Source of the DNA: Candidatus Saccharimonadota bacterium
GTDB lineage: Bacteria; Bacteroidota; Bacteroidia; Flavobacteriales; Blattabacteriaceae
DNA: 32,000 nt
Direction: 5' to 3'
Assembly: GCF_033370915.1 (NCBI RefSeq)
Contig: NZ_CP104096.1
Coordinates: 50,873-82,872, forward strand
The position numbers and the translations under genes are program-made. Below, in pieces: positions 20,703-22,188 of the stretch. Each line of letters starts with the position of its first letter. Position 1 is the stretch's first letter. The notes under the pieces were generated by a model. That model was not told the origin of the DNA. It searched no databases and worked only from the letters and a program-made list of their open reading frames with translations.

Positions 20703-21713
20703 GTGTTAAATAATTATTATATATCAAGGAAAGATACTATAACAGCAATATCAAGTCCATTAGGAACAGGAGCAATATCAATAATAAGAATATCAGGAAA
20801 AAAATCAATAAAAATTATAAAAAAAATATTAACTAAAAAAAAAATAAAATATAATAAAGTAAATATAGGAATAATATATGATAAAAAAGAAATAATAGAT
20901 AAAGTAATAATAATAATTTATAAAAAACCAAAATCTTATACAGGAGAAAATTTAGTAGAAATAAATTGTCATGGATCAATTTATATACAAAAAAAAATAA
21001 TAAATATAATAATAAAAAATGGAGGAAGATTAGCAAAAAATGGAGAATTTACTTTTAGAGCATATTTAAATAAAAAAATAGATTTATTACAAGCCGAATC
21101 AATATATGATTTAATAAAATCAGAAAATAAAATTTACCATGATATAGCAATAAATAATTTAATATATAATAAATTATCAAAAAATATATTAAAAATACAA
21201 AAAAGTATATTAGATATATTATCTTATATAGAAATAATGTTAGATTTTTCAGAAGAAGATATAAAAATAGATAAAAAAAAAATATATAATAAAATAATAT
21301 ATATAGAAAAGAAAATAAAAAAATTAATAGAATCTTATAAAATAAATAATATAATTAAAGAAGGATTAAATATAGCTATAATTGGACCAGTAAATTCAGG
21401 AAAATCTACATTAATGAATGTATTAATAAAAGAGGAGAAAGCGATAATATCAAAAATTCCAGGAACAACAAGAGATATAGTAGAAGGAAAAATAAAAATA
21501 GAAAAATTAAAATTAAATTTATTTGATACAGCAGGGATAAGAAAAACTAATTCAAAAATAGAAAAAATAGGAATAAAAAAAACATTTAAAAAAATAAAGG
21601 ATACTAATATAATTTTATATGTATTTGATATTTTAAAATTAAAAAATTATTTAAAATTTAAAGAAAAAATAAAAAAATTAAAAAAAAAAATATTTAAAAA
21701 AAAAAAAAAATAA
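20703..21713 (+). CDS. mnmE: tRNA modification GTPase MnmE, 5' segment (GTG start; frame ends inside the poly(A) insert)
   Basis: DTITAISSPLGTGAISIIRISG (N-terminal domain), GPVNSGKSTLMN (G1), PGTTRD (G2) and FDTAGIR (G3). The frame stops at 21711-13, before G4 and G5. Confidence 0.85.
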   Translation: MLNNYYISRKDTITAISSPLGTGAISIIRISGKKSIKIIKKILTKKKIKYNKVNIGIIYDKKEIIDKVIIIIYKKPKSYTGENLVEINCHGSIYIQKKIINIIIKNGGRLAKNGEFTFRAYLNKKIDLLQAESIYDLIKSENKIYHDIAINNLIYNKLSKNILKIQKSILDILSYIEIMLDFSEEDIKIDKKKIYNKIIYIEKKIKKLIESYKINNIIKEGLNIAIIGPVNSGKSTLMNVLIKEEKAIISKIPGTTRDIVEGKIKIEKLKLNLFDTAGIRKTNSKIEKIGIKKTFKKIKDTNIILYVFDILKLKNYLKFKEKIKKLKKKIFKKKKK

Positions 21714-21852
21714 TTAAAAAATAAAAAAAAAAAAAAAAAAAAAAAAAAATTAAAAAAAAAAAAAATAAAAAAAAAAAAAAAAAAAAAAAAAAAAAAAAAA
21801 AAAAAAAAAAAAATAAAAAAAAAAAAAAAAAATATAAAAAAAAAAAATATTT
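21696..21852 (+). repeat. 157-nt insert composed only of A and T (A15, A27, A14, A47, A18, A12 runs) flanked by an 18-nt direct repeat
   Basis: There is no G or C between 21664 and 21892. AAAAAAAAAAATATTTAA occurs at 21680-97 and again at 21837-54. All three frames carry TAA within 21711-21724. Confidence 0.9.
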
Positions 21853-22188
21853 AATAAAAAAAAAATTATAAATTATAATATAATATTAATATCAGCAAAA
21901 AAAAAGAAAGGAATTAAAAAGATATATAAAAATTTATATAAAATAATCCCAAAAAAAGAAATAAAAAATAATAATTTTATAAATAATTTAAGACATTATG
22001 AAGAATTAAAAAAAAGTTTAAAATATATTAAAAAATTTAAAAAAGATTATTTAAAAAAAATACCTTATGAATTTATTACAATAGATTTAAAATTATCTTT
22101 AAAACATTTATATAATATAAATGGAAATAATTTAACTTATAATGAAATATTAGATAATATTTTTTCTAAATTTTGTATAGGGAAATAA
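21838..22188 (+). CDS. mnmE: MnmE 3' segment (no start codon; +1 frame relative to the 5' segment)
   Basis: My manual translation gives KKKIFNKKKIINYNIILISAKKKKGIKK...NNLRHYEELKKSL...YEFITIDLKLSLKHLYNINGNNLTYNEILDNIFSKFCIGK and a stop. It contains the G4-like NKKK, the G5 SAK and the diagnostic C-terminal FCIGK. There is no Met anywhere in the segment. Confidence 0.85.
   Translation, partial: KKKIFNKKKIINYNIILISAKKKKGIKKIYKNLYKIIPKKEIKNNNFINNLRHYEELKKSLKYIKKFKKDYLKKIPYEFITIDLKLSLKHLYNINGNNLTYNEILDNIFSKFCIGK

Follow-up and report, generated by a model that had tools for sequence, protein, structure and literature searches.

A 157-nucleotide A/T-only tract in place of the G4 segment of mnmE in a Candidatus Shikimatogenerans chromosome, possibly marking a young pseudogene

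The tRNA-modification gene mnmE is interrupted by a long poly(A) tract in the stretch of DNA analysed here (the window), which comprises 32,000 nucleotides (nt) of contig NZ_CP104096.1 (positions 50,873 to 82,872 of the forward strand). The window has a guanine-plus-cytosine (GC) content of ∼13% and is part of the ∼160-kb chromosome of Candidatus Shikimatogenerans bostrichidophilus, which belongs to the Bacteroidota and lives as an endosymbiont in bostrichid beetles (PMC10284843). The closest genomes are CP104095.1 (strain B, also L001) and CP104094.1 (Strain A, also L002/L003), and Strain A was the sole member of the clade returned by a scan of GTDB genomes. The gene order infB, rng, tRNA-Leu and mnmE, followed by gltX and trmD in the reverse orientation, is common to the window and both sisters, each of which encodes an intact MnmE of 461 amino acids (aa; 87–88% identical). 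The coordinates of the features at the locus, together with those of the partner gene mnmG, are listed in Table 1.

Table 1. Features of the interrupted mnmE gene and its partner gene mnmG in the window (ORF, open reading frame).
Feature	Position	Strand	Description
mnmE N-terminal ORF, 336 aa, GTG start	20703..21713	+	TrmE_N, first part of helical domain, G1–G3; TAA end at 21711–21713
Longest G/C-free stretch of the window	21664..21892	.	Composition count
18-nt repeat, copy 1	21680..21697	+	Ancestral codons KKK-I-F-K (AAA AAA AAA ATA TTT AA.); same codons in L001 and L002
Compound poly(A) tract	21696..21852	+	A15, A6, A27, A14, A47, A18 and A12 with T, TT or TAT between
Stops closing all three forward frames	21711..21724	+	TAA at 21711, 21715 and 21722 (sequence and three-frame translation)
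18-nt repeat, copy 2	21837..21854	+	11 A's of the last tract run, then ancestral I-F-N codons ATA TTT AAT
mnmE C-terminal remnant, 113 codons, +1 frame	21847..22188	+	IFNKKK...FCIGK*; G5 ISAK (ILISAK), second helical part, FCIGK
mnmG, 608 aa, intact, MnmE partner	4963..6789	-	Pfam GIDA 3.5e-158; 90–92% identical to full-length sister MnmG

The N-terminal ORF shares its GTG start with the sister strains and matches the Pfam families TrmE_N (5e-39), MMR_HSR1 (2e-23) and MnmE_helical (positions 1–131 of 211), and its G-domain motifs G1 (GPVNSGKS), G2 (PGTTRD) and G3 (DTAG) align to those of relatives. The fragment ends in ...KKLKKKIFKKKKK. Downstream of the tract, the C-terminal half contains the remainder of the helical domain (MnmE_helical positions 107–211 of 211, 3e-19), the G5 motif (SAK), peptides that include NLYKIIPK and HLYNINGNNLTYNEILDNIFSK, and the C-terminal CIGK. 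Both halves are unambiguous MnmE (PF10396, PF01926 and PF12631), being 87–93% identical to the intact sister proteins, and 100–106 of the 113 residues of the C-half match those of the sister strains. The G4 motif NKxD is absent from both halves and from the joined product, and there is no single uninterrupted frame, with stops in all three frames and the C-half in the +1 frame. No ATG, GTG or TTG was found by scanning the frame of the C-half, which is open from 21838. The original prediction, made from the letters of the sequence, had described an mnmE whose N-terminal frame stops at 21711–21713 and is followed by TAA in every frame within 14 nt, with a C-half in the +1 frame devoid of Met, and the ORF list, the translations and the start-codon scan agree with this description. 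It had also placed both G4 and G5, along with FCIGK, downstream of the break; G5 and FCIGK are encoded there, but G4 is not. The encoded product would thus be limited to a 336-aa fragment with G1–G3 and without G4, G5 and the C-terminal CIGK, and it is on this ground that the gene is called a pseudogene. The N-terminal piece is identical to WOX79460.1, a protein to which NCBI gives the annotation MnmE for Candidatus Shikimatogenerans (160,463-bp chromosome); a 336-aa fragment listed as 'MnmE' and not marked as truncated constitutes a database problem.

The G/C-free stretch around the break is 229 nt long, the runner-up in the window being 88 nt. Within it, A-runs of 15, 27, 14, 47, 18 and 12 nt start at 21696, 21723, 21752, 21767, 21815 and 21836, respectively; both this interval and the run lengths of the original prediction were reproduced by count. 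Elsewhere in the 32 kb, A or T runs reach 14 nt at most; five of the six longest runs of the window are packed into 157 nt. The frequency of runs outside the tract drops by a factor of 0.57 per extra base, a decay under which 0.004 runs of 27 nt or longer and 5e-8 of 47 nt or longer would be expected per window. Tandem Repeats Finder reported a period of 1 and 84% A for the tract, in which no internal periodicity beyond period 1 was found; a long 'repeat family' match represents poly(A) self-similarity.

What the tract replaced is apparent from the relatives, in which the protein at this place reads ...KKL KK(I/K) IF KKKK VLLIANKIDK(Y/N)NI(I/N)(F/L)(N/K)KKK IINY.... The corresponding sister DNA consists of an A12 run, the codons GTA TTA TTA ATA GCT AAT AAA ATA GAT AAA TAT AAT ATT ATT, then TTT AAT and an A10 run; across the sisters, A12 and A10–A14 runs flank the ancestral 42 nt. 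This unique ancestral segment of ∼42 nt (codons VLLIANKIDKYNI), which encodes strand beta5 and the G4 motif NKxD, is missing from the window, and the tract occupies its place. The segment from G3 to G5 spans 378 nt in the window and 272–290 nt in six relatives, and no run longer than 14 nt is present at the mnmE locus of the two sister assemblies, which belong to the same submission. In an alignment of ten MnmE sequences from Shikimatogenerans, Karelsulcia, Blattabacterium and Lutibacter, the N, K and D of G4 (columns 361, 362 and 364) are at least 90% conserved and fall within the stretch of 19 residues that the joined window product lacks. The original prediction had regarded mnmE as split precisely by an insert and had proposed a comparison with sister strains; the intact gene found there contradicts a clean insertion, since the tract stands in the place of the 42 nt for G4 and the gene of strain B already has the strings found at both of its borders.

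An 18-nt direct repeat flanking the tract had been read as the signature of such an insertion. The 18-mer AAAAAAAAAAATATTTAA is indeed present at 21680 and 21837 and nowhere else in the window. In the uninterrupted mnmE of CP104095.1, however, the codon strings for IFKKKK and IFNKKK already lie 57 nt apart, and the place orthologous to the second repeat copy reads ATT TTT AAT AAA AAA AAA ATT ATA AAT TAT in this strain. Both IF(K/N)KKK codon strings are thus ancestral coding sequence, with the rest of the 18-mer accounted for by an A-run. The insertion of a mobile element with target-site duplication was considered and rejected, because the repeat is already double in the uninterrupted strain B gene and its remainder is an A-run. 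Deletion of 157 nt does yield the ORF of ∼442 aa that had been anticipated, but this is not a normal length for MnmE, which measures 460–474 aa in the clade, and 19 residues including NKxD are missing from it.

At the left edge of the tract, TAATTAAAAAATAAA could be a decayed TTATTAATAGCTAATAAA, and the right edge retains TAT...ATA TTT AAT. A 'repaired' frame reads IIKNKKK where the relatives read LLIANKID, in low-complexity sequence for which no meaningful statistic can be given. The resemblance at the edges suggests decay in situ rather than the insertion of foreign DNA. We favour, at somewhat better than even chances, a recent in situ expansion of lysine-codon A-runs, presumably by replication slippage, that overwrote G4, closed all frames and left a young pseudogene. 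The starting point would have been the lysine-rich loop around strand beta5 of MnmE, encoded by A-runs of 10–14 nt in the sister strains. These runs would have expanded in place, most simply through replication slippage under strong AT bias, and the outcome would have been the 157-nt A/T-only tract, with a net gain of 100 nt between G3 and G5 and the overwriting of 14 G4-bearing codons. The TAA stops would then have closed all three frames and turned the gene into a pseudogene.

The quality of the surrounding sequence bears on this interpretation. Over 21 kb, the 14 further genes that the window has in common with Strain A all keep their full length, although ∼54 A or T runs of 10 nt or more occur outside the tract, and 29 of the 31 indels in these shared genes, with sizes of 3–19 nt, are multiples of three. 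Apart from the tract, the assembly preserves reading frames accurately; the run lengths given in the deposited sequence may not be exact. In the lineage of the window, the ratio of nonsynonymous to synonymous change (pN/pS) was 0.20 for the N-half and 0.11 for the C-half, compared with 0.11–0.23 in intact relatives. As both halves still look fully constrained, the event would be very recent relative to the divergence of the sisters, or else an artefact.

Several observations weigh against the expansion of A-runs into a young pseudogene. The low pN/pS, as in intact relatives, and the lack of secondary lesions would also fit an artefact or a gene still in use, and the partner gene mnmG is intact. 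The A47 run is approximately four times as long as the longest Blochmannia tract (12 bp; PMC3017870), and no other run in the 32-kb window outside the tract exceeds 14 nt. One strand also shows many apparent T-to-A and G-to-A changes, a pattern that ordinary AT-biased point mutation does not predict and that needs run expansion together with deletion. No second assembly of the strain was found by exact-protein look-ups of the N-half, P0003 and GltX or by an exact 45-mer scan of metagenome contigs.

Of the four explanations put forward in the original prediction, an assembly artefact and a slippage-derived pseudogene stay in the lead, whereas rescue and a two-piece protein are unlikely. A local assembly, gap-closing or polishing artefact, in which spurious poly(A) replaced an A-rich segment of 100 nt and the true mnmE is intact or carries a simple homopolymer indel, is a possibility of some substance that we nevertheless rate as doubtful. 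It would account for the singularity of the tract in the window, for halves that are as conserved as intact orthologues and free of other lesions, and for the intact mnmG; moreover, the ancestral segment is A-rich and lies between A12 and A10–A14 runs, a context in which coverage and base-calling are poor. A literature search on the sequencing platform of CP104094–CP104096 returned no paper that cites them; Kiefer et al. (2023) deals with the CP0998xx genomes. Such an artefact must, however, have deleted 42 unique nt including G and C and added ∼140 nt, which goes beyond simple homopolymer miscalls, while all other frames were kept through ∼54 long homopolymers and the two sister assemblies of the same submission stayed free of long runs at the locus. 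Genomes of this clade from an independent project also have coding regions that contain A21 and A27 tracts.

If the tract is real, full-length MnmE could be made at a low level through multi-site slippage of RNA polymerase and/or ribosome sliding, or through long-range bypassing between the ATA–TTT sites, but we consider this improbable. In Buchnera and Blochmannia, slippage during transcription restores genes that carry frameshifts (PMC3017870; PMC5009743), long A-runs are very slippery (a 40% change of frame for an A28 tract; PMC5009743), pN/pS gave no sign of relaxed selection, and mnmG is retained. Against this, three frames are blocked within 14 nt, and when each of the seven A-runs was varied from -2 to +2 nt, only 1.9% of the run-length combinations gave a joining ORF; the minimum was three changes (A15 +1, A6 -1 and A12 -1), one of them in the short A6 run, and the slippage product would contain ∼45 extra lysines and lack NKxD. 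Bypassing had been proposed by analogy with T4 gene 60, whose defining features are summarized in PMC5009743. As in gene 60, identical codons stand at the borders of the gap (ATA TTT at 21691–21696 and 21847–21852), stops lie within the gap, and the downstream ORF has no start codon. The rationale is nonetheless gone, because these codons are ancestral coding sequence and the joined product (442 aa) would lack 19 conserved residues with the defining GTPase motif. Unlike in gene 60, the gap is 157 nt rather than 50 nt, and the stop is not adjacent to the putative take-off codon, since five AAA codons separate TTT from the TAA at 21711. The window RNA provides no take-off or 5' stem-loop: the region 21660–21900 is predicted to be unstructured, with a minimum free energy of -1 kcal/mol, a z-score of -0.3 and an unpaired centroid. 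The tract is also missing from the sister strains and is thus not a conserved recoding site. An active enzyme assembled from the 336-aa N-fragment and a separately translated 113-aa C-fragment is very improbable. Both fragments are well conserved, and gene callers give overlapping pieces of 353 and 120 aa in CP099828.1; however, the C-frame has no start codon, G4 is in neither fragment, the break falls inside the G-domain core (strand beta5), and no split MnmE was seen among the homologues listed, obvious frameshift products aside. It is likewise very unlikely that the tract is a functional DNA element lying in a dead gene, such as an unwinding element or origin, bent DNA, or a terminator for the convergent gltX. 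As the longest G/C-free stretch of the window it would melt easily, and on the minus strand it forms a poly(T) sequence 340–500 nt past the gltX stop. The original prediction had raised the idea of an easily melted element and of a skew inflection at the tract, but the cumulative GC skew of the window shows no inflection at 21.7 kb and reaches its minimum near 11 kb. The tract is, in addition, missing from the sister strains despite the same gene order, and has no Rfam match and no structure. An RNA element was rejected, as there is no fold and no Rfam family except the upstream tRNA-Leu.

In other Shikimatogenerans genomes, too, mnmE is broken in this lysine-rich segment, in one case at an A21 run. 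In CP099828.1 (L010), mnmE is frameshifted at an A21 run directly after NKIDKKE, and in CP099821.1 (L011) an in-frame TAA and frameshifts divide it into at least three pieces. An attempt to infer the loss of mnmE from absence in a hit list was rejected, because a 200,477-bp genome that was not listed nevertheless has an intact 465-aa gene. The mnmG gene is intact also in CP099828.1, and, according to a 2025 preprint, mnmA and mnmG are kept in all complete Shikimatogenerans genomes that it surveyed (10.1101/2025.10.31.685726). An intact mnmG in the window, from which the original prediction had argued that the pathway is in use, is therefore weak evidence for a working mnmE there. It is conceivable, though quite unlikely, that the tract is genuine and the beta5 region is a clade-wide poly(A) hotspot (A12 in the intact gene, A21 in the frameshifted one and the 157-nt tract), with MnmE repeatedly lost or made at trace level through multi-site slippage and MnmG kept.

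Neighbouring genes in these two genomes are also affected. In CP099828.1, rng is split by A13-T-A27 (991–1310), mnmE carries the A21 frameshift (3513–3875) and gltX is called as 321 + 159 aa (3876–5358), so that several long-poly(A) or split genes occur within one 6-kb stretch. In CP099821.1 (2283–5786), gltX is cut to 346 aa and trmD is in two parts (124 + 86 aa), which indicates either a strongly eroded locus or a poor-quality assembly.

It is established that gene erosion in AT-rich endosymbionts can begin with poly(A) slippage (PMC3017870); homopolymer frameshifts in the genes of AT-rich insect endosymbionts are either such a beginning or are rescued by transcriptional slippage (PMC3017870; Tamas et al. 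2008, cited therein). The window resembles the cases in Buchnera and Blochmannia in that an A-run in lysine codons affects an essential-looking gene of a tiny AT-rich endosymbiont, and in that mnmE is otherwise intact, has no acceleration of rate and is intact in sister lineages; the classic form, a single A21 frameshift, is seen in the same mnmE segment of the relative CP099828.1. It differs from them in scale and kind. Theirs is one indel in a tract of 9–12 nt, whereas the tract in the window is compound, with 157 nt and runs of up to 47 nt, has cost mnmE 14–19 codons including G4 and amounts to a net +100 nt over seven runs. Stops in all three frames mean that slippage at a single site cannot repair the gene, and the lesion is not conserved between strains, the two closest genomes being intact and tract-free. 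Compared with a functional MnmE, the ORF is interrupted, G4 is missing and ∼52 codon-equivalents of poly(A) have been inserted.

Homopolymer contingency loci, which mediate phase variation, occur in bacteria with small genomes such as Mycoplasma, Haemophilus and Campylobacter. As at these loci, a homopolymer within a coding region of the window changes the reading frame. Unlike at these loci, however, no change in the length of a single run restores the ORF (none of the enumerated solutions involves fewer than three runs), and the lost G4 codons are irrecoverable, which would make the switch one-way.

Several other features of the window were recorded. A 203-aa ORF without a Pfam match (18829–19440, plus strand) has a low-complexity block of tandem (KINK)n / (KNIK)n / (KINE)n repeats as well as an acidic tail. 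Its place between infB and rng is taken by an HU gene in CP099828.1 (569–859) and in L013 (8187–8474), and a tblastn search of the window with the HU protein from those genomes gave nothing convincing. A DUF2797 homologue is apparently split: an ORF of 137 aa (24624–25037, minus strand) covers positions 96–225 of the 227-position profile, and the N-terminal part lies in another frame (25109–25420, minus strand). Strain A carries the same ORF pair (104 + 137 aa), which is possibly an older shared frameshift. The cumulative GC-skew minimum falls at ∼10900–11600, at the divergent nusB/DUF3276 pair, where the genes turn from mostly minus to mostly plus strand, and this region is a possible replication origin. 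The tRNA-Met gene (1366–1440, minus strand) overlaps the 3' end of an hflX-like ORF on the opposite strand (237–1400), and the tRNA-Glu gene (4725–4798, minus strand) overlaps the ileS ORF (1499–4783, TTG start) at its first codons; the real ileS start is therefore probably further downstream. A transfer-messenger RNA (tmRNA) gene with the tag peptide GKTNYYNLAA (9278–9662, minus strand) is retained in this ∼160-kb genome.

The kind of event that we favour, poly(A) slippage starting gene erosion in an endosymbiont, is known, and its scale is unusual (47 nt versus ∼12 bp in Blochmannia). Neither a real tract nor an artefact would point to recoding by a new mechanism. An artefactual tract would serve as a warning on A-rich segments in assemblies of genomes with less than 15% GC. 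If the mnmE segment is a clade-wide hotspot, MnmG would have a role independent of MnmE, or unmodified U34 would be tolerated in a ∼160-kb genome, and bacterial chromosomes could contain homopolymers close to 50 nt in length. With a real tract, the locus would capture the first moment in which a minimal genome loses one of its most persistently retained tRNA-modification genes, and an extreme case of homopolymer slippage.

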